DNA of 24,000 nt from Flavonifractor sp. An100. Its GTDB lineage: Bacteria; Bacillota; Clostridia; Oscillospirales; Oscillospiraceae. The stretch spans positions 47,770-71,769 of the forward strand of contig NZ_NFMA01000003.1 in NCBI RefSeq assembly GCF_002161175.1, written 5' to 3'. Positions 2,070-14,944 of this stretch are shown in pieces (position 1 is the first letter of the stretch; the number at the start of each line of letters is the position of its first letter). Under the pieces are notes generated by a model that was not told the DNA's origin, made no database searches, and saw nothing but the letters and a program-made list of their open reading frames with translations. A program made the position numbers and the translations under genes.

Positions 2070-5000
2070 TTACAGCCGCTCACGCAGTTCTGTCCAGCTA
2101 GTGGCAGCCTCCAGCTCCACCCCAGCGTTCAAGGCTTTGAAATGCTCCTTGCCGCAGTGAATTTTCAGCTGCTCACTGGTTTTCAGGTGCATAAAGCTGG
2201 TGTCGCCCTTGGTTTCCAGGACAAAATACAGCTTTTCCTCACCATTCTTGTTGAGATACACAGCCCAGTCGGGGTTGTACGTGCCGATGGGGGTTTCAAT
2301 TTTGAATCGGCTGGGAATCTTGAAGAACATCTTCACATCCGGGTCGTTGTCCAAGGCCACGGCAACCGGCTTCTCCACCGTGGAGCTGTCGTAAACCACA
2401 TAGTCATAGACGCTGTGTTCCACCTTTACGGCGTTCCGATCCAGGTTAGCAAGCAACTCAGTGGTGTCGAAGATTTCCTGCACATAATATTCCTGGCCGT
2501 CCAGCTTCACATAGCGGATACCGTCGATAGCCAGGGCGTGGCGGTGGCTGCGGATCAGCTCTACGACTTGCTCCAGAAATGCCTCCGGGTTGTTGAGAAA
2601 GTCCTTGCACCGTCCACTCCCCACCAGAATCCGATTGATGGTGGCCGGGGTCAGCAGCGTTTCATCGCTGATGGCGGTAATAATGTCCGGCAGGGCCTGA
2701 TAGTCGTTGGCAATATCCATTGTCCGCATTTCCCGTTCTATGTGACTGATTCCAGCCTGTTCAATATGGATGTCGGCGGTCTGGGACACCAGTCGGGTTT
2801 TGGGGATATGGGGCATTTCCCGGATAACTTTGACGCAGTTCTCCACAAGCTGCTCGGTGTCAATGCTCACCCGATAAGCGGTTTTCTGCTTGATCTTGTT
2901 CCATAGCTCCAGGAACTCCGGGGAGAGCATGACTTGTTTGTTGAGCCGCACCACCACATCACGGGAAGCATCCCGCACCGGGGGCTTCCGGTCGGCATTG
3001 GCGATAATCTGCTCAAACCGCTCTCTGGCAGCTTCATATTTTTTCGGCAGGTCAAGGGTTCCGTTTTTCAGAGCGTTCTTCATGGTGTCCTTGACCTTGC
3101 CGGTGCTGGTGATATACCCCTTTTGCTCAAAATGTTGCAGCAGCTCGGTTGCTTCCTCGTGGGTGACAGTGTGTTCCTCCACCACGGTTTCCGTGTAGGT
3201 GGTTCCGGCCAGGGATTCCACCGCCACCGGCTGGGCCTTTTCTACGATTTCCTGTACCACTTCTTTGACAGGCTCCAGCGCCTTGGGCAGCTCGATTTCC
3301 CTGGGCTTGATTGCAGCGGCCACCTGACCAGCCTCATCAATCACACCAGCGGTTTTCAGGGCCGCTACTACCGCCTGGGCCTGTTCAGTCGTTACCTGCT
3401 TCTCTACGTCCCGACGGGCCTCATAGACCATGCCGGAAAACAAACTAAGCTGAAGCACACCAAACTTGACGCCGGTTTCGTCCTCGATCTCCTTTTGGAG
3501 GGTGGAGGCAAATTCGGCAAAGCTCTCGTTGGCCATAACGTGAAGGACGTTGATGTTCTTATCCTCGATACGCTCGCCGTCCTGGTTCACGCACAGGCGC
3601 AGGCCACGGCCCACCTTCTGACGGCAGGTAAAGGTGGACTTCTGCTCGATCAGAGTGCAAACCTGGAACACATTGGGGTTGTCCCAGCCTTCCCGCAGCG
3701 CCGAGTGGGAGAAAATAAACCGCAGCGGACACTCAAAGCTGAGAAGCCACTCCTTGTCCCGCATAATGGTGTTGTAGGTGTCATCGTCAGCTTGGGTGTC
3801 GCCTTTGGTATCCTTCAGACGGCCCTTCTTGTCCTGGGAGAAGTAGCCGTTATGCATCTTACTCACGTCTGTGGTAAACCGCTCCTGAAGGACGGCATAC
3901 TTGGGTTTCGCCATCAGCTCCTGGTAGCACTCCTCAAACATGGTGGCATAGATGCCGGGGGTGCCGTCCTCGTGGCGGTACTTGTCCACCTTGTCGATGA
4001 AGAACAGGGACAGTACCTTGATACCCTTGTCCAGATACCGCAGCTCTTTGTCCAGGTGGGTTTCGATGGTGCGCCGGATCTGCGCCTTCTTGACGATGTT
4101 CTCGTCTACATCGCCAATGGCCTTGCCCAGCTTGACCTCTTGGGTGTTGCCGAACTCGATATGCTCAAAGTCGGGGGTACAGTCGATTCCGGCGACGGTG
4201 TAGCCTTCATACAGTTCCCGTTGACCGGAGAGCAGGAACAAATCGTCTCCCGGCTTGACGGTCATGGCCTTTCGGGTCACGGCTCCGGTCTTGCCCTTCA
4301 CATCCAGTTCTACCCTGGCCTTAAAGCCCTTGTCGTTGCTGACAGAAAGCAGCCGCACATAGGCTTGGTTGAAGCCACCGGCAATCTGATTGGAGGACAC
4401 GGCGATCTGCTTCACCAGCCCCATCTGGTAGGCATCCACCGGAGTCAGGCGGTAAAGCAGATTGATTTTTTCTCGGTGGGTAGCGGAGTACCGCAACACA
4501 CACAGGGGGTTCAACGTGGCAATGGCTTCCTTGGCCTTGGGGGTGTTGTCTACACTCTGGGGTTCGTCGATGATGACGATAGGATGGGTATTCTGAATAA
4601 AGCCCATGGCCGTCTCGCCACCCAAACGATCTTGGGCCTGGTTGATAATGTTCTCCGCCTTCTTGAAAGCGTCGATGTTAATAATCATCACTTCGATGTT
4701 GGAGCTGGTGGCAAACTGCCGCACATCGGACAATTTGGCAGAGTTGTAGATGAAGTACCGGCACGGCACATTGTCATATTGCAGGCCGAAATGCTCCTGA
4801 GTGACTTGAAAGGACTTGTAGACGCCCTCCCGGATGGCCACCGACGGCACCACAATGACGAACTTGGTAAACCCGTACTTGCGGTTCAGCTCAAAGATGG
4901 TCTTGGTGTAAACATAGGTCTTGCCGGTGCCGGTTTCCATCTCGATACAGAACTGGCAGCGTGACGCTGCACCCAATGCGCCTTCGGCGGCGGGTTCCAA

Positions 5001-5228
5001 GTCAGTGAGTGGTAAACCATTCCGCTTCTGGACAGCGTGCATATTGGCGGTCAGTGTTTCCTGGTCGATGTAGAGGGCGTTGCCCTGGCCCAGTTCAGGG
5101 AGAAGGGAAGTCTGCCGATCATCCACCACGGAGAAGGTGCTTTTGGTTTTCTCCTGGCCAGTAAATAAGTCCACCACGGCGTTGACTGCGTCCGTTTGGA
5201 AGGCTTGATTTTTGAATTTAAGTTTCAT
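2070..5228 (-). CDS. res: Type III restriction endonuclease, Res subunit (SF2 helicase + C-terminal PD-(D/E)xK nuclease)
   Basis: 1052 aa. The N-terminus MKLKFKNQAFQTDAV is typical of Res. Motifs seen: Walker A METGTGKTYVY, motif II IVIIDEPQSV, motif VI QKVGRGLRL, and nuclease core YNPDWAVYL...LYFVLETKG. The SD AAGAGGTGA overlaps the upstream stop. Confidence 0.9.
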   Translation of the reverse strand: MKLKFKNQAFQTDAVNAVVDLFTGQEKTKSTFSVVDDRQTSLLPELGQGNALYIDQETLTANMHAVQKRNGLPLTDLEPAAEGALGAASRCQFCIEMETGTGKTYVYTKTIFELNRKYGFTKFVIVVPSVAIREGVYKSFQVTQEHFGLQYDNVPCRYFIYNSAKLSDVRQFATSSNIEVMIINIDAFKKAENIINQAQDRLGGETAMGFIQNTHPIVIIDEPQSVDNTPKAKEAIATLNPLCVLRYSATHREKINLLYRLTPVDAYQMGLVKQIAVSSNQIAGGFNQAYVRLLSVSNDKGFKARVELDVKGKTGAVTRKAMTVKPGDDLFLLSGQRELYEGYTVAGIDCTPDFEHIEFGNTQEVKLGKAIGDVDENIVKKAQIRRTIETHLDKELRYLDKGIKVLSLFFIDKVDKYRHEDGTPGIYATMFEECYQELMAKPKYAVLQERFTTDVSKMHNGYFSQDKKGRLKDTKGDTQADDDTYNTIMRDKEWLLSFECPLRFIFSHSALREGWDNPNVFQVCTLIEQKSTFTCRQKVGRGLRLCVNQDGERIEDKNINVLHVMANESFAEFASTLQKEIEDETGVKFGVLQLSLFSGMVYEARRDVEKQVTTEQAQAVVAALKTAGVIDEAGQVAAAIKPREIELPKALEPVKEVVQEIVEKAQPVAVESLAGTTYTETVVEEHTVTHEEATELLQHFEQKGYITSTGKVKDTMKNALKNGTLDLPKKYEAARERFEQIIANADRKPPVRDASRDVVVRLNKQVMLSPEFLELWNKIKQKTAYRVSIDTEQLVENCVKVIREMPHIPKTRLVSQTADIHIEQAGISHIEREMRTMDIANDYQALPDIITAISDETLLTPATINRILVGSGRCKDFLNNPEAFLEQVVELIRSHRHALAIDGIRYVKLDGQEYYVQEIFDTTELLANLDRNAVKVEHSVYDYVVYDSSTVEKPVAVALDNDPDVKMFFKIPSRFKIETPIGTYNPDWAVYLNKNGEEKLYFVLETKGDTSFMHLKTSEQLKIHCGKEHFKALNAGVELEAATSWTELRERL

Positions 5229-5234
5229 GCCTGT

Positions 5235-5753
5235 TCACCTCTTAAACAACCGCAGGAACAGGGTATAGTTCCATAAAAGATTATCTGCTTCAATGGAGTG
5301 CTGAATATTGATAATCTCATATTTGATTCCAACAATATTTTTACTGTCCATGTAGAGCTTGAGATTTTTATAGCTCTGCACAACATCAAGTTGATTTAGT
5401 ATTCCATTGTCAAGCACCTGATCTATTTTTGAAGTCAAGTTCCGATATATGTCTTGATTTCCTGTTTCACAATACAGGGCTGCTCGTTCGTAGGCGGTTT
5501 TTAGTGCTAATAGTGCATCTTTGCGTATGTCAATCTGCATTTTTCGCACACCAACAATAATTACTTCGTATATCGTAAAGCAAAAAGCAATCCGTTCAAT
5601 CCAAAGCCACAAAGTATTACCGCTGGAGATAGGGGAAAGGAATGTAGAAAGATAAGCAAGTAAGAATGGAATACCAATGTATTCGATTGTTCCAAGTAGG
5701 CAATGCACAGTGGTTTTTGTGATTACATGAAACCATTTTAGAGTGTTATTCAT
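5235..5753 (-). CDS. Uncharacterised membrane protein, 2 predicted N-terminal TM helices plus a helical C-terminal domain of about 100 aa
   Basis: 172 aa. Hydrophobic segments are VHCLLGTIEYIGIPFLLAYLSTFL and LWLWIERIAFCFTIYEVIIVGV. The ATG at 5753 is preceded by GAGGAAG, 7 nt after the mod stop. Its stop lies inside the res SD. It is AT-rich (line 5341-5400 is 21/60 GC by hand count). Confidence 0.6.
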   Translation of the reverse strand: MNNTLKWFHVITKTTVHCLLGTIEYIGIPFLLAYLSTFLSPISSGNTLWLWIERIAFCFTIYEVIIVGVRKMQIDIRKDALLALKTAYERAALYCETGNQDIYRNLTSKIDQVLDNGILNQLDVVQSYKNLKLYMDSKNIVGIKYEIINIQHSIEADNLLWNYTLFLRLFKR

Positions 5754-5760
5754 ATCTTCC

Positions 5761-7617
5761 TCACACCAGTTTCAGCTCAATTCCATGATCCCGCAGGATA
5801 TAGTAGGCATTTGCCATAGCGGTATCGTCGGCAAAGCTGTCACGGGAGATAATGATTTTAGCCGGAGCATATTCGGTCATTTGCTCCACGTCCTCCGGCT
5901 GCACATCTTCGGCCAGACAGACCAGCAGCAGGCAATCATCGCCCACGCCATAGACGGTCTTGTTGTGGATGGAGAACGGGGTCACGGAGTAGGTCAGCGG
6001 TACACCCAGCTTCAGCATGATTTCATAGATCATATCCAGGTCGGTACGCTCCGGCTTTACCCGGTGAATCATGGTATTCATTCGCTGGTACAGCAGGTCG
6101 AGCTGCTCGTCCTCAATGGGGGTAGCGTCCCAGGTTTTCAGATTGGAGGTGTCCAGCTTAAAGACACGGAAGCCCACGTCCAGGGGCTGCTTGTCCTCCT
6201 CCATAGTGACTTGGGCGTGTTCCTCCAGGATTTTCTTTCCGGCCCGCCGGATTCGCTCCTTGCCGATCTCGCAGATATTCTTGTACCCGGCCTTATGCGC
6301 CTCGCTCTTTTCGTCGCACAGCTCGGGAAGCTGCACCAGAATAAAGCGCCGGTTGCCGCCGTCCTCGGCATTGAGCTGCATCACCGCATGGGCGGTGGTA
6401 GCGGAGCCAGAGAAGAAGTCGAGAATAATGTCATCATTTGAAGTTGAAATCGCAAGACACCGCTGTATTAGTTCAACTGGTTTAGAAAAGTCAAATATCT
6501 TTCCGCCAAATAATTTTGTTAAGCCTTGCGCAGCAGATTGGGTATGACCAACCTCTGTGTTAGGCCACCATGTCCAAAGATTGCGTCCTGCTCTTTCCGA
6601 GAGATATGTTTTCTTTCTTGGAACACCCTTTCCATCTGCACCAAACCAGATTCGCCCAGCAGCTATTTCTTCGTTCATTTTATCCTGTGTATATCGCCAA
6701 CACAGGCTGTCAGGCAATTCGATAACCCGTCCAGCAGGTGTAACCATAGTATAAAATTGGTTTTTCGTTCCGTGACCAGCTTGTGCTGTGCAATCAGTCG
6801 AAATCCACGGCCCTCTGGGGTCGTTATCAGGATTTTTATAAGCTGCTTTGTCCTTTTCAGAAAATGGTAGCAGCTTTATAACTTGGTTACTATTCTGAAT
6901 GTTTTTTGTATAGACAAGGATGTATTCGTGCCCCGGGCTAATAACCCGTCGTGCATCTGGTGATGTACGTTTTTGCCATATAATCTGTGCTATAAAATTT
7001 TCCTCGCCAAACACTTCATCACAAACTTTTCGCAGGTTTGTGACCTCGTTATCATCAATCGAGATAAAAATCACACCATCATCCCGCAGCAGGTTTGCCG
7101 CCAGACGCAGACGGGGATACATCATGTTGAGCCAGTTGGTGTGAAAGCGGCCCATGGTTTCCGGGTTGCTCTTGGTGGTCTGCTGGGTCACTTCCTTGTA
7201 CCGGGCCATGGGATCGGCAAAATCATCGGCATAGACAAAATCGTTGCCGGTGTTGTACGGCGGGTCAATATAGAACATCTTCACCTTGCGGTAGTAGGCC
7301 GTTTGCAGCAGCTTCAAGACCTCCAGGTTGTCGCCCTCGATGTAGAGGTTCTGGGTGGTGTCCCAGTCCACGCTTTCCTCCTGGCAGGGGCGCAGGGTTC
7401 CGGTGGAACGCTTCTGGGCCAGCCGCAGGCAGTCCGCCTTGCCCTTCCACTCAAACTTGTACTTCTCAAAATCGTTGTCGATGTACTCGCCGCACAGAGA
7501 AAGCAGCTTGTCAATGTCCAGCTTGCCCTCGCTGACGCACTCCGGGAACACCGAGCGCAGCTTGTCCAGGTTGCTTTGTTCTATGTTCATGGAAAGTCCG
7601 TCAAGTATATCAGGCAT
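5761..7617 (-). CDS. mod: Type III DNA methyltransferase, Mod subunit (beta-class N6-adenine/N4-cytosine MTase)
   Basis: I trimmed the track ORF to the ATG at 7617, which has AGGAGG 9 nt upstream (7627-7632). Motif IV is FYIDPPYNTGNDF and motif I is ILDFFSGSATTAHAV, with a long variable region between them, as in Mod proteins. Confidence 0.9.
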   Translation of the reverse strand: MPDILDGLSMNIEQSNLDKLRSVFPECVSEGKLDIDKLLSLCGEYIDNDFEKYKFEWKGKADCLRLAQKRSTGTLRPCQEESVDWDTTQNLYIEGDNLEVLKLLQTAYYRKVKMFYIDPPYNTGNDFVYADDFADPMARYKEVTQQTTKSNPETMGRFHTNWLNMMYPRLRLAANLLRDDGVIFISIDDNEVTNLRKVCDEVFGEENFIAQIIWQKRTSPDARRVISPGHEYILVYTKNIQNSNQVIKLLPFSEKDKAAYKNPDNDPRGPWISTDCTAQAGHGTKNQFYTMVTPAGRVIELPDSLCWRYTQDKMNEEIAAGRIWFGADGKGVPRKKTYLSERAGRNLWTWWPNTEVGHTQSAAQGLTKLFGGKIFDFSKPVELIQRCLAISTSNDDIILDFFSGSATTAHAVMQLNAEDGGNRRFILVQLPELCDEKSEAHKAGYKNICEIGKERIRRAGKKILEEHAQVTMEEDKQPLDVGFRVFKLDTSNLKTWDATPIEDEQLDLLYQRMNTMIHRVKPERTDLDMIYEIMLKLGVPLTYSVTPFSIHNKTVYGVGDDCLLLVCLAEDVQPEDVEQMTEYAPAKIIISRDSFADDTAMANAYYILRDHGIELKLV

Positions 7618-8140
7618 CTTTTTGTACCTCCTGAGTTGTTGCTTTAGACACATTTAGATAGTCCGGGTGCTTATGGAGCAATTCAAATACCCACGGTTGA
7701 ATAAATCCTGGGGATAGCCCTCGTGGCGCAATGCTTGTTCCAGACGGCTGAGAAATAATTCCAAAAGTTTTGAGTTTTTGTGCCACCGGGTCCATCATTG
7801 AAAAGAGAATCGCTGTTTGTCCCTTGTCATAAAACTGTTTTAAATAGACTTTTTCTACATCTGAAAGATTCTTCAGAATGTATTTATATGTTCTCCATGT
7901 GTTGATTTTATTCCATTTCCGTTTGGTAAAACCAATAATGTATTTCATAATATAAGAAATGAGTAGCGAAGCAGATATTGCAAAAATAATAAAAAACCAT
8001 ATCCCATATTTTTCTCTAAATGCGATAATATCAAATGGCAGAAAGGTTGCAGGAAAGAAAAGCAAGAATATACTGGCAAAACAGATTGCAAAGGAGGCTC
8101 TAGCAGATGTATCTAAAACTTTTCCTATATCAAAATTCAT
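7610..8140 (-). CDS. SieB-like (superinfection exclusion protein B family) 2-TM membrane protein
   Basis: 176 aa. Two N-terminal TM helices are SFAICFASIFLLFFPATFL and GIWFFIIFAISASLLISYIMKYIIGF. These are followed by LKNLSDVEKVYLKQFYDKGQTAILFSMMDPVAQKLKTFGIISQ...FIQPWVFELLHKHPDYL. From memory, this pattern matches SieB-family proteins (LSxxEKxxLxxF...T..L...D..V..L...GII...qPW...L..nP). It is very AT-rich (line 7981-8040 is 15/60 GC). Confidence 0.5.
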   Translation of the reverse strand: MNFDIGKVLDTSARASFAICFASIFLLFFPATFLPFDIIAFREKYGIWFFIIFAISASLLISYIMKYIIGFTKRKWNKINTWRTYKYILKNLSDVEKVYLKQFYDKGQTAILFSMMDPVAQKLKTFGIISQPSGTSIAPRGLSPGFIQPWVFELLHKHPDYLNVSKATTQEVQKDA

Positions 8141-8143
8141 TTA

Positions 8144-10795
8144 TCACACCTCAACTTTAACCATAAATTCCCTCTGCACCTTTGCCGTCAGCTTTTCCTT
8201 GTCGGCAAAGGACTTTATTTTTTCTTCCAGCTCTACATCCAGGCGCATAGCGTCAAAGAACTGGCTCTCCTGCCGCTTCATGTATTCCTGCCGAAGCTGG
8301 GTTACTCTTTTCTGCGCAGACAGCCGTTTCAGCCGGTCGCCGGTGACGGCCTCCAGCTCCGCTTGGGCCTGCTGAACCTGGCTGTCTAGGGTGTTCAGCT
8401 CACGGCTCAATGCCGCCTTATCAGCGGACACCTGCTGCTTCATCCGTTCCATTGCCTCGGCCTGGGCGGGAGACAAACGCTCCAACTGCGCCTCCAGCAG
8501 CGCCTCCTTTGGCACCAAATTATCCAGCGGGTGGGGACGGCTGCTCCCTTTTAACCAGTGGGGAGATCTCCGCTCATCCTCGGTGTAATTCTCCACCGGC
8601 AGCTCCAGGATGCTGCGGCAAGCTGCATCGTCCAGGGCTTTGCCGCTCTCCGTTAGGCCACATAGTACGGCGTGTTCCGTGCGGCTGGAGCCTGATACCA
8701 GAGTCACGGTATAGAGGGCAATCTGGCACGGTTCCGGCGCTGTTGGAACAGTCAGCACTCCCTCATTGGCGCTCTCCAGCTCGTGGAGAATCCCACGGCC
8801 TATGATGCTGGACAGGGTAATCTGTCCGGCCTTGGGTTTGAAGTCCTTTGCCATGCCGTACATCTTCTGGCTGCGATAGGGCCGGTTTCTGCTCCCCGTC
8901 CAGTAGTAGAACAGCACCGGCAGCTCCCGGTACTTCGTGGCCGTAATGGTACGGCTGGCTTCGTCGATCACAAAATGGCAATCGTCGTTCTTTTCATTGT
9001 AACGGTTGAAGAACCATTTGGCAATCTCCCAAAGGTCGTTGTTCAGCTCCTGCCCACGGCGATTCACATACTTGGGGTTGATCTTCACTTTGTCGGCCAA
9101 CTCCTTGGTGAAGGTGGTAAACAGAATATCTTCCGCTGCGGAAACGGTCTGCCGGTTATCTTGCTCGTGGGTGTCCAGGGTCTGGCGGTATGCCTGCTCA
9201 ATCTGCGCCCTGGGCCGCAACCGCTGGGCAATGACCGGAAAGGCCGCTTTTACATCATCCGTAAAACCGCCCAGCACGTCATCGGTAATGCCAAAGACAC
9301 CGTCTGTCACCAGCATCCGCTTGTTGACCAGCTCCAGCTTGCGAACATCGGCAAAGTTGTTCTTGTCGATGAAGGCCACAGACAGCACATCGTTCTCCTG
9401 ACCCAGCCGGTGGCAGCGGTCGATACGCTGCTCCAGCTTTAAGGTGTTGTACGGCAAGTCGTAGTGGATGATGAAAGCAGCCTCCTCCAGATTGAAGCCC
9501 TTGGCACCGTTATCGGTGGAGATCAGCACCTCGCCGTCCTCTTTGAACCGGCGGATCACGGAGTAATCGGCGCTACCATTATAGGCCAAGGTGTAGTACT
9601 GCCCGGAAAGAAGATCCTGGAGCATCTTCTGGGTTTCCACGCTCTCGGTGAAGATAACGACTTTCCGTCCGGCTCCCGTTTTCTTCATCAGAGAAAAGCC
9701 CTGTTTGAGAACGGTCAGCAGCTCACCGGCCTTTGCATCCTGTGGGATGCTTTCTGCCACGGTCTGAATCTCTTGCCATTGGGTCAGCTCCTCCGCTGCG
9801 TTTTCCAACCCCTGGAGCCGCTTGACGATACCTTTGATGGTTTGCAAAATTGCCGCCGTAGAGGAACCCAGCAGGCCCAGCAGCCGTAGAGCCAGGTCAT
9901 ATTGGTTCATTTCGGGAAAGGCTCTCTTTTCCGGCTGGTTGATGTAGGCGTACAGCAGCTCATAGAGCTGCCGCTCTGCCTTGCCGGGGGTGTACTCCAC
10001 GGTCAACAGCACACGCTCCGTCACCTTGGCGTAGTGCTTGGCCTGGGAACGGAGGGTACGGAAACAATAGCGGCTGACCTGTTCGCTGAGTTCCGGGTAG
10101 TTCTCCGGTCGGCGCAGATACCGGGCCAGAAACTCTTTTTCTCCCGGCAGCAGCGTTTCGTCGATGAACCAGATCACGCCGTACAAGTCCATAATGTTCT
10201 TTTCGATGGGGGTGCCGGTCAGCAGCAGCTTGAAGGAGTCTCCGGCGATCCGCTTAAGGGCCTTGGCCTGTTTGTTGTCCTCTTGGTAGACCGGGGACAG
10301 GGCGTTGGCTTCTTCAAATACCGTCAAGTCCCAGTTGACCACCTTTGCGGCCTCCTCGTTGTCGGCGGCAAAGTCATAGGTCGTAATGACAATGGCATCC
10401 TGAATAAAGGCGTTGGGATGGTCGGGGGCACTGTAGGCCTGCCATTCTTTGCGGCTGGTCAGAACCACATAGGGAACGGTATAGAACCGATCCAGCATTT
10501 CCGTCCATTGGTACAGCAGGTCTGCATTGGGAATGACCAGCAGAATCCGGCTGCATCCCTCCAGCCACTTTTGATTGATGACCAGCATGGCCTCGTGGCT
10601 CTTGCCCATACCGGCTTCATCGCACAGGACAGCACCTTTCTGATAGGGGGAACGCAGGGCAAAGCTGGCCGCTGCGATCTGAAACGGATAGATTTCAATA
10701 TCCGATGAAGCAAAGACCGGGAGGAACTGTTCTTCCTCGGGTAGCTGCTCCAACAACCGAGCCTTGTAATAGGCATGAAATGGTGTTTGCAGCAT
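8144..10795 (-). CDS. SNF2-family (SF2) ATPase/helicase with a long C-terminal extension ending in a coiled coil
   Basis: 883 aa. Motif I is LCDEAGMGKSHEA. Motif II is the variant DLTVFEEANAL. Motif III is LLLTGTPIEKN and motif VI is QRIDRCHRLGQ. The last 110 aa or so are heptad-like and Q/E/K/R/L-rich. An AAGGAGGG SD lies upstream of the ATG at 10795. Confidence 0.85.
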   Translation of the reverse strand: MLQTPFHAYYKARLLEQLPEEEQFLPVFASSDIEIYPFQIAAASFALRSPYQKGAVLCDEAGMGKSHEAMLVINQKWLEGCSRILLVIPNADLLYQWTEMLDRFYTVPYVVLTSRKEWQAYSAPDHPNAFIQDAIVITTYDFAADNEEAAKVVNWDLTVFEEANALSPVYQEDNKQAKALKRIAGDSFKLLLTGTPIEKNIMDLYGVIWFIDETLLPGEKEFLARYLRRPENYPELSEQVSRYCFRTLRSQAKHYAKVTERVLLTVEYTPGKAERQLYELLYAYINQPEKRAFPEMNQYDLALRLLGLLGSSTAAILQTIKGIVKRLQGLENAAEELTQWQEIQTVAESIPQDAKAGELLTVLKQGFSLMKKTGAGRKVVIFTESVETQKMLQDLLSGQYYTLAYNGSADYSVIRRFKEDGEVLISTDNGAKGFNLEEAAFIIHYDLPYNTLKLEQRIDRCHRLGQENDVLSVAFIDKNNFADVRKLELVNKRMLVTDGVFGITDDVLGGFTDDVKAAFPVIAQRLRPRAQIEQAYRQTLDTHEQDNRQTVSAAEDILFTTFTKELADKVKINPKYVNRRGQELNNDLWEIAKWFFNRYNEKNDDCHFVIDEASRTITATKYRELPVLFYYWTGSRNRPYRSQKMYGMAKDFKPKAGQITLSSIIGRGILHELESANEGVLTVPTAPEPCQIALYTVTLVSGSSRTEHAVLCGLTESGKALDDAACRSILELPVENYTEDERRSPHWLKGSSRPHPLDNLVPKEALLEAQLERLSPAQAEAMERMKQQVSADKAALSRELNTLDSQVQQAQAELEAVTGDRLKRLSAQKRVTQLRQEYMKRQESQFFDAMRLDVELEEKIKSFADKEKLTAKVQREFMVKVEV

Positions 10796-10872: not shown

Positions 10873-10915
10873 CAGATAAACGGGAGCTGCTTATTGGGCA
10901 GCTCCCGTTTATCTG
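10873..10915 (-). terminator. Perfect 18-bp stem hairpin (CAGATAAACGGGAGCTGC ttattgg GCAGCTCCCGTTTATCTG) downstream of the TPR-nuclease gene
   Basis: The arms are exact reverse complements. On the minus strand the hairpin is followed by TTTCATACATTG (a moderate U-tract). Confidence 0.65.
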
Positions 10916-10964: not shown

Positions 10965-12506
10965 TCAAATTTCAGTATAAGAAATGCTATACTCAAAAAG
11001 ACGCATTTGGGAATCCTGTTTGACTTTTCTTTTAAGTTCAGCAGTAGGGCTATTCAAACATATAAGGCCGTAAACGTGTTGTCCGGACTTCGCAATATCT
11101 GCTTCTACCCATTCAATATATGTTTTAGTTTGTGTGTACGCATCATCGTAACCGGAGTCTTTTTTTAGCTCAATCACATAAAGGTCGTTGTTATTATCTG
11201 TTGCCAAAATATCAAGTCTACCAGTACGAAGAATAAATTGTCTGCCGTACACGCCCCTTTTTTGATAGACCTTTAGTGAAAGACCAAAAACCGGAATGCC
11301 CTGTTCCATTCTCTGAATTAGTTCATCTTCAAGAAGTTTTTCACTGGTAAATTGATGCTTTTTTATTCCTATGTTAATCGTGGAAGTGTCTGCTGCACTA
11401 TCTTGTGAATCTGTATCCACATCACATTTTTTGGTTGCCAGGGGACGTCCAATTCTAGCAACGAGTTGTTTTGACACCTTATATCCACTTTTCTCAACAA
11501 ATTCTTTTGCCTTATCTTGCTGACCTAATGCCAAATAAGTACGAACGAGATTGTTTGCCGCAAAGCGTGTATCTCTTTTCTCCGATAAACATTTGCGAAA
11601 TACATCTTCAGCATCATGGTATTTCTTCTGCTTAAACAAACAATATCCCAGGTTATTCAAGGCGTTTTCTGCCTCTGGAAAAACTTCTAATGTTTTTCTG
11701 TAATATGCTTCTTCTAACTGATAGTTGCGCTTTTTTCCATAGCACCAAGCCATCCAAAAGTAAATATTGTCCGTATAGAATATGCCTACACGATCTTTTA
11801 CATCCTCATATTGTTCTAAATACGATAGAGCGTTGTTCCACATCTGCATATTATAATAGGTGTATCCCAATAGTTCTTTCGCCAAATATATATCTCTGTT
11901 GGTTTGCAACACTCGCAACAGTGCATCTGCAATATCTTCATTTTTTGTCCCGTAATAAACGCTTTCCAATGCCTCACACATTTCTGGAATACCTATACAT
12001 ACGCCGGGTCTATCGAGCAGTTCTCGCAAATAACTCCACATTCCAGGAATGCCTTCTTTTAGCGGTAAGACCAGACAATAAATAAAGTCTGAGCATGACA
12101 TTTCTTCATCTTCAGCCAAATAACGCTTTATCTTTGCAGGAACATACTGTGCGAGCCTTTCGTTAATTGCTCCAGATTTTCCGGTAAGTAAGTCAATTAC
12201 TGCAAAATATATTTGCTTGATGGGGTCACCGTCCGATAATCTTATAACAGAATTTCGGTATTCAATAAAGCAGGGATCTTTCATAACATCGCATTTCATT
12301 AGCTCTGAATATCTGAGATACCCCATTGTCAAGCTATCTAAAAGCAAGTCGCAGTATTTACTCTGCAATTCGTCATGAAATACAGGGGAGGCAGATATTA
12401 TAACATTTCGGCATTCTTGAAAATTAGGTTCCTTGGAAAAATCAAGTTGGTCATATGCTTGACAAAGCTTGTTTTGATAATGAATAAGTTCCTTTGATTC
12501 TGCCAT
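10965..12506 (-). CDS. TPR-repeat protein with a C-terminal PD-(D/E)xK nuclease domain (NucS/DUF91-like)
   Basis: 513 aa. TPR-like repeats span roughly aa 200-345 (e.g. AYYRKTLEVFPEAENALNNLGYCLFKQKKYHDAEDVFRKCL). The C-terminus GRLDILATDNNNDLYVIELKKD carries a D...ExK core (nt about 11163-11213), then YIEWV...VYGLICL. AGGAGG lies 8-9 nt upstream of the ATG at 12506. Confidence 0.7.
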   Translation of the reverse strand: MAESKELIHYQNKLCQAYDQLDFSKEPNFQECRNVIISASPVFHDELQSKYCDLLLDSLTMGYLRYSELMKCDVMKDPCFIEYRNSVIRLSDGDPIKQIYFAVIDLLTGKSGAINERLAQYVPAKIKRYLAEDEEMSCSDFIYCLVLPLKEGIPGMWSYLRELLDRPGVCIGIPEMCEALESVYYGTKNEDIADALLRVLQTNRDIYLAKELLGYTYYNMQMWNNALSYLEQYEDVKDRVGIFYTDNIYFWMAWCYGKKRNYQLEEAYYRKTLEVFPEAENALNNLGYCLFKQKKYHDAEDVFRKCLSEKRDTRFAANNLVRTYLALGQQDKAKEFVEKSGYKVSKQLVARIGRPLATKKCDVDTDSQDSAADTSTINIGIKKHQFTSEKLLEDELIQRMEQGIPVFGLSLKVYQKRGVYGRQFILRTGRLDILATDNNNDLYVIELKKDSGYDDAYTQTKTYIEWVEADIAKSGQHVYGLICLNSPTAELKRKVKQDSQMRLFEYSISYTEI

Positions 12507-12581
12507 GCTGAGTTCCTCCTGACGGTCTATTAGCCAGCTCTTATATATTTTCTAAGTTAAAATCTGTTTGTGTGATTTTTT

Positions 12582-12590
12582 ATTATATCA
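12582..12590 (-). promoter_or_regulatory. Extended -10 element TGATATAAT upstream of the TPR-nuclease gene
   Basis: The minus-strand sequence ttttaTGaTATAATaaaaa was read directly. No good -35 is present, as is common for extended -10 promoters. Confidence 0.35.
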
Positions 12591-12693
12591 TAAAAGCAAT
12601 AGAGCGGTTAGACGTGAATTCAAGACTGTATTGAGTATGATGACAGGCCTAACGGAAATCGCTCTCCGTTGGGCCTGCCTAGTGGTCACGCAT

Positions 12694-13410
12694 TTAATCT
12701 TTTAATGAAACATATCCAAAATGATATTGAGAATCTGAGATCGTCTGTTTTAAGCTGCGCCCTGTGCTTGTTATTTTGAGCATTTCAGCAGTGATTTGGG
12801 TTTCATGACAAATATGTGAGAGTTTTAGCCAAATTCTTGCAAGTTCACCATGAAATTCAGCAGGGTAATTGGTGTTATCTGGGCAAGACACAGGAGTTTT
12901 TGCGGAAAAAATTTCTTCAACATTTGCTGAAAATGCGATGTCGTTATCATAGTGTTCATTGTTGATAGCAAAGAGAATCTTGACGCTTTTCCCGGATTTA
13001 ATCCTATCGTTATACCACTTCACTCTAGTGTCACTCATTCCGAAGAACAGTGATTGCGTGGAGAACCAAGTATATCCACGCTTAGCTTCATCTGAAATAT
13101 ATAACGCCATCGTTTCTTCACCATCTAAAGTAACTCCACTAGACGTAGAAAGCCCTAATTTCATAAAAATATAATCTGAACCATCCATCTGGATACTGTC
13201 TCGATCAGCAATCATAGCTTTCACTTCCTCCACATGAAGATATTTTTTCTTTAATCTCAGGTATAGCTCCTCGTCTTTAGCGAGCATATACATTTCTAAA
13301 ACATCATTGAGTGCGGCGGTTTTTGTCATTCCTTTTTCCGACACAAAGTCATTAAACATCTCTTGAACGGTGTCGGCCACTGTGATAGTCATGTAATTTT
13401 GCCTGCCCAT
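12694..13410 (-). CDS. Ribbon-helix-helix-like N-terminal domain fused to an uncharacterised C-terminal domain of about 170 aa (possibly a PUA-like/EVE-type fold)
   Basis: I trimmed the track ORF to the ATG at 13410, which is preceded by GGAGGGG (13416-13422). The N-terminus MTITVADTVQEMFNDFVSEKGMTKTAALNDVLEMYML has a strand-helix-helix pattern. The C-terminal domain assignment rests only on the pattern RIKSGKSVKILFAI...IAFSANVEEIF...ARIWLKL...ITAEMLK, which is weak. Confidence 0.5.
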   Translation of the reverse strand: MGRQNYMTITVADTVQEMFNDFVSEKGMTKTAALNDVLEMYMLAKDEELYLRLKKKYLHVEEVKAMIADRDSIQMDGSDYIFMKLGLSTSSGVTLDGEETMALYISDEAKRGYTWFSTQSLFFGMSDTRVKWYNDRIKSGKSVKILFAINNEHYDNDIAFSANVEEIFSAKTPVSCPDNTNYPAEFHGELARIWLKLSHICHETQITAEMLKITSTGRSLKQTISDSQYHFGYVSLKD

Positions 13411-13425
13411 TAAATCCCCTCCATT

Positions 13426-13468
13426 GTGTACCATATAGCCGGTAGAGTTTCTTCTAAAGTGTACCATA
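13426..13468 (-). promoter_or_regulatory. Two direct 10-nt repeats GTGTACCATA (13426-13435, 13459-13468), 33 nt apart: a putative operator pair
   Basis: The repeats were read directly. One overlaps the -10 of the TTGACA-17-TACACT promoter. The other lies in the leader next to the SD of the RHH-fusion gene. Confidence 0.4.
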
Positions 13469-13996: not shown

Positions 13997-14033
13997 AAAA
14001 ACTGTGGCCAACCGAAATGTTGTCCACAGTTTT
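13997..14033 (-). terminator. Rho-independent terminator downstream of the DUF1273 gene (usable in both directions)
   Basis: AAAAACTGTGGCCAAC pairs with GTTGTCCACAGTTTT (one mismatch). It is followed by TTTTTCTTAAT on the minus strand and TTTTAATTT on the plus strand. Confidence 0.65.
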
Positions 14034-14041
14034 AATTTAGC

Positions 14042-14503
14042 TCATATCTTTATAAGATGAACTTCTTTGCCAAGCGTATGTGCACAGCGCATGGTAAATA
14101 GAGTCCCGCCGTGATCACGCCCATCATAGACAGCAATTACCCGCTGTGACTGGTGTACCATATAGCGATTTCGTTGCATGAAACAGGATGGAACATACTT
14201 TTCGCATTCTACCTTGACGCCATTGCAGGCCTGCAGCAGCTCGTGGAACTGCTGATTTTGGGTTTTCAACCTCCCGGCATGAGGAATAGCCGCTTCCAAA
14301 AACAACTCCGGATGCTGTGCTTTTTCTTCAGCCACGATAGAGGCAAACATTAGGTCAATTCCTTCAGCAAAGCCGGATATAAACCGAGTATAGCCATCCT
14401 CAATCGCTGATAAAATTTCACACCTAAGTTCTTTCTCCACATAAGTAATGCGATCTGCGGAAATTTCTCTGTGTCCAGTCACACAACAAGTTTTTTCATT
14501 CAC
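14042..14503 (-). CDS. SLOG-superfamily DUF1273 (YpsA/YoqJ-like) protein
   Basis: 153 aa with a GTG start at 14503 and GGGAGG 7 nt upstream. It carries the signature CVTGHRE near the N-terminus and FISGFAEGIDLMFASIV, as in DUF1273 proteins of Firmicutes phages and mobile elements. Confidence 0.65.
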   Translation of the reverse strand: MNEKTCCVTGHREISADRITYVEKELRCEILSAIEDGYTRFISGFAEGIDLMFASIVAEEKAQHPELFLEAAIPHAGRLKTQNQQFHELLQACNGVKVECEKYVPSCFMQRNRYMVHQSQRVIAVYDGRDHGGTLFTMRCAHTLGKEVHLIKI

Positions 14504-14909: not shown

Positions 14910-14944
14910 GCGGGGTGCTATGGTTCAATGCCATAGCACCCCGC
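14910..14944 (-). terminator. Rho-independent terminator at the end of the conjugation operon
   Basis: A 14-bp perfect stem, GCGGGGTGCTATGG ttcaatg CCATAGCACCCCGC, is followed on the minus strand by ATTTTTCGTTTCGG. Confidence 0.75.

Follow-up and report, generated by a model that had tools for sequence, protein, structure and literature searches.

NucS/EndoMS is the mismatch and flap endonuclease of Archaea and Actinobacteria, a vertically inherited repair gene in those members of both groups that lack MutS/MutL. In Avs proteins, arms of tetratricopeptide repeats (TPR) recognise conserved phage proteins, and a STAND (signal transduction ATPase with numerous domains) NTPase provides the oligomerisation switch for a nuclease effector. 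Shedu (SduA) is a single-gene PD-(D/E)xK nuclease with a variable N-terminal domain thought to gate its activity, and the PADLOC candidate PDC-S02 comprises single-gene 'NucS domain-containing' proteins of about 270-310 amino acids (aa), for example on Pseudomonas plasmids. NucS-like nucleases have also been found joined to an EVE-like reader in Madara (identical with PDC-S11; bioRxiv 10.64898/2026.09.05.749240) and to an iEndoIII reader in END-Mag (PMC12191111). Both are validated defence systems with catalytic mutants and set a precedent for NucS-like modules fused to sensor domains as defence effectors. Here we describe P0001, the 513-aa TPR–NucS-like protein encoded at positions 10965-12506 of a 24,000-nucleotide stretch of DNA from Flavonifractor sp. 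An100, which we call the window. Judging from the sequence, we propose that P0001 works alone and spreads horizontally as a sensor-nuclease, in which the solenoid would respond to a protein trigger and thereby control the nuclease. P0001 is thus a putative one-gene defence or interference system; we give this reading an even chance of being correct.

Architecture of P0001

P0001 joins a helical solenoid, a disordered linker and a nuclease in one polypeptide. Its coding sequence, including the stop codon, spans 10965..12506 on the minus strand with the ATG at 12506, based on the open reading frame (ORF) list and translation, on full-length homologues and on the ratio of nonsynonymous to synonymous substitution rates (dN/dS). 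A preliminary description, made from the letters of the window, had placed the 513-aa ORF at these positions without stating the strand, and had divided the protein into three parts with TPR-like repeats in the middle. Both the division and the repeats are recovered here. The AlphaFold2 model, built on an alignment of 30 sequences, is confident (predicted local distance difference test, pLDDT, 87; predicted TM-score, pTM, 0.83) and shows a continuous solenoid made of helices only at aa 1-355, a disordered segment at aa 358-385 with pLDDT below 50, and an alpha/beta domain, the nuclease, at aa 388-510.

In coordinates of the window, all on the minus strand, aa 1-200 (11907..12506) form the fast-evolving, acidic and all-helical first part of the solenoid, for which pLDDT is mostly above 90 and which we propose as recognition surface. 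About five TPR helix pairs with asparagine- and tyrosine-rich motifs follow at aa 201-345 (11472..11906) and are well conserved. Invariant residues of the TPR part include N225, N284/N285, N318/N319, R322 and Y217/Y269/Y288. The linker at aa 346-386 (11349..11471) is predicted to be disordered, and in the alignment both its length and its sequence vary. It leads into the NucS_C-type PD-(D/E)xK (RecB-like) nuclease domain at aa 387-513 (10968..11348).

The evidence for the repeats comes from several sides. Pfam TPR families including TPR_12, TPR_8 and TPR_1 match at aa ~250-340 with expect values (E) down to 2e-11, and several of them pass the gathering threshold. TPR proteins consist of tandem 34-residue helix-turn-helix repeats that build up a superhelix, and P0001 agrees with this. 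Recognisable TPRs lie at about aa 205-340, and the model contains five TPR-like helix pairs at aa 173-339. Profile searches of the PDB and Foldseek return consensus TPR (CTPR), APC/C and OGT superhelices; with the whole protein as query these searches are swamped by TPR scaffolds and are functionally uninformative. The absence of an NTPase, for which the preliminary description had set P0001 apart from Avs/STAND proteins, is borne out: Pfam, NCBIfam and PADLOC give no NTPase or P-loop match, and the model has no alpha/beta domain before aa 388. The library scans likewise detect no DNA-binding domain and no domain of the EVE, PUA, SRA or helix-turn-helix (HTH) type. The N-terminal region had also been called Cys-rich, which is true of P0001 itself with 9 Cys in its first 190 aa, but does not extend to the family, in which only C177 is invariant. 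There is thus no conserved metal-binding motif, and a Cys-rich metal-binding N-terminus was rejected.

The assignment of the C-terminal domain as a NucS/DUF91-type PD-(D/E)xK core holds by Pfam, by profile and by fold. In P0001, Pfam NucS_C matches aa 422-489 with E 5e-6 and passes its gathering threshold, and it also matches 33/33 domain sequences of the family (best E 3.6e-11). A profile of these 33 nuclease domains matches NucS (2vld, E 5e-4) and EndoMS (5gke, E 0.011), and in the alignment with 2vld the stretches with D432, E446-x-K448 and Q459-x3-Y463 fall on the NucS motifs GIVD…LELK…QMKRY. The nuclease domain modelled alone reaches pLDDT 84, and Foldseek places Pyrococcus NucS 2vld and EndoMS 5gke on top (E 9e-6 to 4e-5, TMq 0.65), followed by Card1/Can2 and VRR-NUC. 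The codons of the catalytic core D432 … E446-L-K448 … Q459-x3-Y463 lie at 11118..11213 on the minus strand; the nuclease motif quoted from the letters is present (…TGRLDILATDNNNDLYVIELKKDSGYDD…), and the numbering D432/E446/K448 given with it is correct. Conservation of the catalytic residues among homologues had been named as a test of the sensor-nuclease reading. D432, E446, K448, Q459 and Y463 are all invariant, as are many other residues of the domain, both in 30 full-length homologues and in 33 sequences of the domain, and the reading is not refuted.

The extreme C-terminus of P0001, aa 501-513 (window 10968-11006), reads …LFEYxISYTEI and is almost invariant across the family. Since TPR grooves often bind C-terminal peptides, the sequence of this tail suggests that it may be a ligand of the TPR part, in cis or in trans. 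In NucS/EndoMS the C-terminus holds a sliding-clamp binding motif; the conserved feature observed at this end of the P0001 family is the tail …FEYxISYTEI.

Relation to described systems

The closest solved relatives of the nuclease are NucS and EndoMS, with which P0001 shares the RecB-like PD-(D/E)xK C-terminal domain and the D, ExK and QxxxY motifs, and which are its best match by profile and by fold. Foldseek and the PDB profile search both align P0001 with no more than the C-terminal half of NucS, and of the NucS families Pfam reports NucS_C alone. In place of the N-terminal DNA-binding and dimerisation domain of NucS, P0001 carries a 355-aa TPR solenoid and the linker. In contrast to the vertically inherited repair gene, the gene for P0001 is rare, mobile and found in Clostridia.

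Among PADLOC models, the nuclease module is closest to those of PDC-S02 and PDC-S11 (Madara), that is, to defence candidates and systems. PDC-S02 is the nearest (E 8e-16) and is likewise stand-alone and borne on plasmids or islands, but only positions 176-303 of its 308-position profile match P0001 (aa 383-510), and its N-terminal part is unrelated. A plasmid search with P0001 returned matches to the nuclease domain only. These are proteobacterial proteins of ~266 aa labelled 'NucS domain-containing', and one of them adjoins an Abi-family gene. Similar to Madara and END-Mag, P0001 is a single polypeptide in which a linker connects a NucS-like PD-(D/E)xK effector with a separate sensor domain. 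Their sensors read modified DNA bases, whereas that of P0001 is an acidic TPR solenoid and presumably binds protein. The match to the Madara model is limited to a core of ~50 aa (E 1.9e-6), P0001 has no EVE/PUA match, and the nuclease is N-terminal in Madara and C-terminal in P0001.

With Avs/STAND proteins P0001 shares the combination of a TPR repeat sensor with a nuclease effector. It differs from them in lacking the STAND NTPase, in its length of only 513 aa and in the reversed order, with the sensor at the N-terminus and the effector at the C-terminus. The layout of Shedu is also similar, but membership in Shedu was rejected: SduA_C (DUF4263) matches only 2/33 domains of the P0001 family at E about 0.016, below any threshold, and in Foldseek SduA 8ps5 appears at rank 20 with E 0.11 and TMq 0.39. 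P0001 thus falls short of full membership in NucS, Avs, Shedu, PDC-S02 and Madara, and no paper found in the literature library that was searched describes a TPR–NucS fusion.

Conservation and distribution of the family

A word-indexed protein search gave 472 clusters at 90% identity, and an exhaustive search at E ≤ 1e-30 gave 120 clusters at 50% identity, which is a minimum for the size of the family. The family is cohesive: nearly all members have ~500 aa and the same architecture, are 38-98% identical to P0001 and almost never carry a name. Nearly all of the best 120 relatives of the nuclease domain also carry TPR domains.

Mean pairwise identity rises from 24% at aa 1-100 and 31% at aa 101-200 to 51% in the TPR core and 68% in the nuclease domain, with 32% in the linker. 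Such a gradient from a variable N-terminus to a conserved nuclease is sensor-like and argues for the reading proposed here. The same order is seen in dN/dS against close relatives, which is ~0.1 for the whole gene, with 0.12-0.25 for the N-terminus and 0.03-0.08 for the nuclease. These ratios indicate a functional gene under purifying selection that is least constrained at its N-terminus. The N-terminal 200 aa are strongly acidic in each of the 30 homologues analysed, with a net charge of about -13, while the TPR part is near neutral. This charge argues against binding of nucleic acid and for a protein ligand, and DNA binding by the solenoid is disfavoured by it.

The 78 loci of the family in species-representative genomes belong to gut and rumen Clostridia (Oscillospiraceae, Lachnospiraceae, Ruminococcus, Anaerovoracaceae), to a few Selenomonadaceae and to one Dialister. 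The nearest relatives of P0001 are found in a Clostridiales metagenome-assembled genome (98%) and in Pseudoflavonifractor capillosus (94%). P0001 is single-copy in its own genome. Its gene is present in 2/150 other sampled genomes of the same taxonomic family and in 2/398 sampled genomes of the class; no copy was found in the single congeneric genome sampled. The P0001 family is therefore a very sparse accessory gene, with a frequency of ~1% or less in sampled Clostridia. Searches of E. coli genomes gave no match. A phage-encoded origin was rejected, as 50,697 phage records contain no tblastn match to P0001 and the fold search in BFVD returned generic TPR proteins only.

Genomic contexts of homologues

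The neighbourhood was tallied for 47 genome loci with 241 neighbouring proteins within three genes, and recurrence of neighbours was counted over 75 loci. No neighbour family recurs, the best being present in 7/75 loci. The neighbours are heterogeneous and include MatE, HTH, GNAT, MarR and nitroreductase proteins, UvrD/PcrA and metabolic genes. Few of the 241 are restriction-modification (R-M) genes, for example McrBC, MmeI and Eco57I.

Several clades are carried by mobile elements, as annotated metagenomic contigs show. The homologue P0056 lies on a metagenomic contig in an integrative and conjugative element (ICE) of another type than that of the window, with CD1107-like, sortase/adhesin, ThyX, dUTPase, TopB and ArdC genes. 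P0003 (82% identical) is found in small TnpV/TnpW/VapE serine-recombinase elements, and the element of P0119 contains ParE/Phd, GmrSD_N, DUF3846/DUF4314 and large serine recombinases. P0278 is located beside a tyrosine integrase. GmrSD+HNH and an EcoRI-type methylase are encoded in the vicinity of P0015, and P0095 is located between glutamate dehydrogenase and transporter genes.

The preliminary description had placed the gene in a defence-island context. This applies to the window and to a few clades, but not to most of the 47 tallied loci. A consistent location of homologues in housekeeping or repair contexts, which had been set against a defence role, is not what we observe either: the gene is a sparse accessory gene, often on ICEs or integrative elements.

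As a separate observation, identical copies of P0278 occur in two contexts (L096:10001-13459 and L097:8996-12454), each time followed by DUF6508 (297 aa) and a 331-aa protein of no known family, so that the three genes recur together at a second chromosomal site. One of the two contexts adjoins the tyrosine integrase and a DUF927 primase. P0278, DUF6508 and the 331-aa protein may form a clade-specific three-gene block.

The gene and its surroundings in the window

The cargo islet suspected from the AT-rich sequence is seen as a fall in GC content to 0.375-0.39 across 11-13.5 kb of the window, compared to ~0.55 in both flanks. VirB4 of the window belongs to the CD1110 family and VirD4 to the CD1115 family, which identifies the setting as a Firmicutes ICE. 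The P0001 gene sits in the cargo islet of this ICE.

The R-M-like operon described beside the gene is a complete Type III R-M system with a DrmD-like SNF2 helicase and a SieB-like protein. These form a five-gene module at 2070-10795 on the minus strand, in the order SNF2 (883 aa, 8144-10795), SieB-like ORF, Mod (5761-7653), an uncharacterised 172-aa ORF and Res with an RE_endonuc domain (2070-5228), all on the minus strand; the SieB-like ORF overlaps the start of Mod. SNF2 with a partial Mod-like match recurs in the genome of locus L106 at 93% SNF2 identity, directly beside two large serine recombinases, so that the module appears to be transferable by itself as a unit. A functional unit of P0001 with SNF2/Type III was rejected, since the module occurs without the nuclease beside serine recombinases in genome G193 and the nuclease occurs widely without the module.

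On the other side of P0001 and on the same strand lie two small ORFs of no recognised family, a SLOG/YpsA-like protein, an NlpC/P60 hydrolase, VirB4 and VirD4. The YpsA/SLOG (DprA-like) protein of 153 aa at 14042-14503 (minus strand), in the same AT-rich islet, gives a partial match to the PADLOC model ShosA (Shosta) with E 6e-8 and is conserved beside type IV secretion system (T4SS) genes in Pseudoflavonifractor capillosus (locus L002). Further strong hairpins at 13998-14033 and 14910-14944, with stems of 15 bp (93% complementary) and 14 bp (100%), are found between the small genes of the islet and at the boundary with the NlpC/P60 gene.

The gene directly upstream, P0306, is a 257-aa ORF at 12694-13467 on the minus strand. 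Most homologues are shorter (238-240 aa), which makes an internal Met ~19 codons in the probable true start. P0306 has no match in Pfam, NCBIfam, PHROG or PADLOC, and its N-terminus is only weakly CopG/ribbon-helix-helix-like (E 0.7, not significant). It had been described as a ribbon-helix-helix fusion gene whose pairing with the nuclease might be conserved. This expectation fails: the two genes co-occur only in the two nearest relatives of P0001, and in L002 an IS1595-family transposase and an aminoglycoside-2''-nucleotidyltransferase-like (ANT(2'')) gene at 6223-7781 separate the P0306 homologue from the nuclease. The P0306 family has many members among the hypothetical proteins of Clostridia and is found without the nuclease in chromosomal settings beside ProRS and aromatic-amino-acid genes. 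A P0001–P0306 pair was thus rejected. The insertions in L002, among them a resistance gene, show that cargo builds up in the islet. As P0306 and SNF2-Mod-Res each occur without the nuclease, we regard the islet as a hot spot for cargo, in which the nuclease is an independent unit.

Candidate expression signals lie around the gene. A hairpin at 12642..12679 (minus strand, dG -27.2 kcal/mol, z -4.9) follows the upstream 257-aa gene and separates it from the nuclease gene. The extended -10-like element TGATATAAT is present at 12582..12590 (minus strand), 76 nt upstream of the start and with no good -35, and a Shine-Dalgarno sequence AGGAGG at 12515..12520 (minus strand) lies 8 nt before the ATG. 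In a generic promoter scan around P0001, promoter-like sites were no better than in shuffled sequence, so the promoter claimed earlier stands as a consensus match only. The very strong 18-bp terminator noticed downstream of the stop codon is a perfect inverted repeat at 10873..10915 (minus strand) with an 18-bp stem, a 7-nt loop, dG -33.5 kcal/mol and z -10, but its U tract is weak and the terminator scan missed it. It is likely the terminator and also the boundary of the islet.

Discussion

In the mechanism that we favour, the acidic alpha-solenoid/TPR module of P0001 would bind a protein ligand, most likely from a phage or another mobile element. Binding would lift an autoinhibition of the NucS-type PD-(D/E)xK domain or drive its dimerisation or oligomerisation. 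The activated nuclease would then cut DNA, either that of the invader or, in an abortive response, any cellular DNA. The confident architecture, the invariant catalytic set, the purifying selection, and the sparse, mobile and partner-independent occurrence of the gene speak for this reading. Besides these, the conservation gradient and the kinship of the nuclease module, defence genes in the vicinity also speak for it, namely the Type III R-M system, the DrmD-like SNF2 and the SieB-like protein beside the gene of the window and those beside P0015 and P0119.

Several results weigh against it. No PADLOC model spans the whole protein, and in the one published test a PDC-S02 representative gave no protection of E. 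coli B against T4, T5 or T7 (bioRxiv 10.1101/2024.09.26.614923). PADLOC and Pfam tallies of neighbours at the 47 loci show no strong enrichment of defence genes. Hallmarks of mobile genetic elements or of defence are seen in only 12/78 loci, a lower bound, since the count covers what is detectable by BLAST in the fetched flanks of up to 8 kb on each side. Gene-wide positive selection on P0001 was not found in dN/dS against close relatives. The TPR core at aa 201-345 is well conserved, which fits a conserved ligand better than a target in an arms race, and would also fit a constant partner of the host or the element. The antiphage layout of sensor and nuclease that had been read from the letters is therefore supported in its architecture and catalytic residues, but lacks a defence model over the whole protein and draws little from its neighbourhood.

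A more far-reaching version of the defence reading can only be put forward tentatively, and we consider it rather doubtful. P0001 would be a minimal, NTPase-free pattern-recognition nuclease, whose TPR part directly senses a conserved protein of phages or conjugative elements and whose NucS-type nuclease is switched on by ligand-driven oligomerisation; the family would be a defence family specific to gut Clostridia, spreading on ICEs and integrative and mobilisable elements. If this were true, 513 residues would do the job for which Avs and NLR-like (nucleotide-binding, leucine-rich repeat) proteins need a STAND ATPase.

The carriage of the gene on mobile elements also fits an explanation in which P0001 serves the elements themselves. 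It could be a weapon of exclusion or incompatibility, directed by its TPR part against a protein of rival ICEs or plasmids, or a maintenance device in form of a cis-autoinhibited addiction toxin against loss or disturbance of the element. The clade of the window and three other examined clades reside in ICEs or small integrative elements and not in classical defence islands, in the window the gene has T4SS genes on one side and the SNF2/Type III module on the other, and P0001 was not found in the phage genomes searched. Around many homologues, however, the context is chromosomal and no element is detectable, and no antitoxin-like partner is conserved. The mechanism overlaps with that proposed for defence and only the target differs. 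We judge this alternative unlikely.

The relationship to NucS/EndoMS raises the question of whether P0001 could be an accessory repair or recombination nuclease, that is, a NucS-like endonuclease for flaps, mismatches or branched DNA that is tethered by its TPR part to a protein of the host replisome or repair machinery. The closest solved relatives are indeed repair enzymes, the conserved TPR core is what a conserved host partner would lead one to expect, and some copies lie among ordinary chromosomal genes, with UvrD/PcrA-type helicases making up 2/92 immediate neighbours. However, the DNA-binding and dimerisation domain of NucS is missing, synteny with repair genes is not conserved, and a gene of low GC content carried on mobile elements, present in ~1% or less of sampled Clostridia and not in the sampled genome of the same genus, is not what is expected of a repair function. 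A role in repair is in our view distinctly improbable.

Finally, helical repeat proteins can bind nucleic acids, and P0001 might be a restriction-like enzyme, Type IV/modification-dependent or structure-specific, whose solenoid reads DNA or modified bases directly, as do the real Type IV-like fusions Madara and END-Mag and as the GmrSD neighbours in two clades would allow, but with N-terminal 200 aa that are strongly acidic in 30/30 homologues, a near-neutral TPR part, no detected EVE/PUA/SRA/HTH-type domain and fold matches to protein-binding TPR scaffolds, we consider this highly unlikely.

We therefore return to P0001 as a putative sensor-nuclease in defence or interference. As a candidate it is compact and consists of one gene; its catalytic site is unambiguous and its model confident, conservation shows a clear gradient from sensor to effector, and it is naturally carried on ICEs that pass between commensals of the human gut. 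Proteobacteria and Bacilli have supplied most of the known defence systems; the corresponding repertoire of gut Clostridia has been little explored. Should P0001 serve competition between elements or repair, the NucS module would be put to a new purpose beyond Archaea and Actinobacteria. If P0001 defends, it would show that the gating of a nuclease by a TPR sensor needs no STAND NTPase, and the family would add a further cargo function that acts on the flow of phages and plasmids in the gut microbiome.

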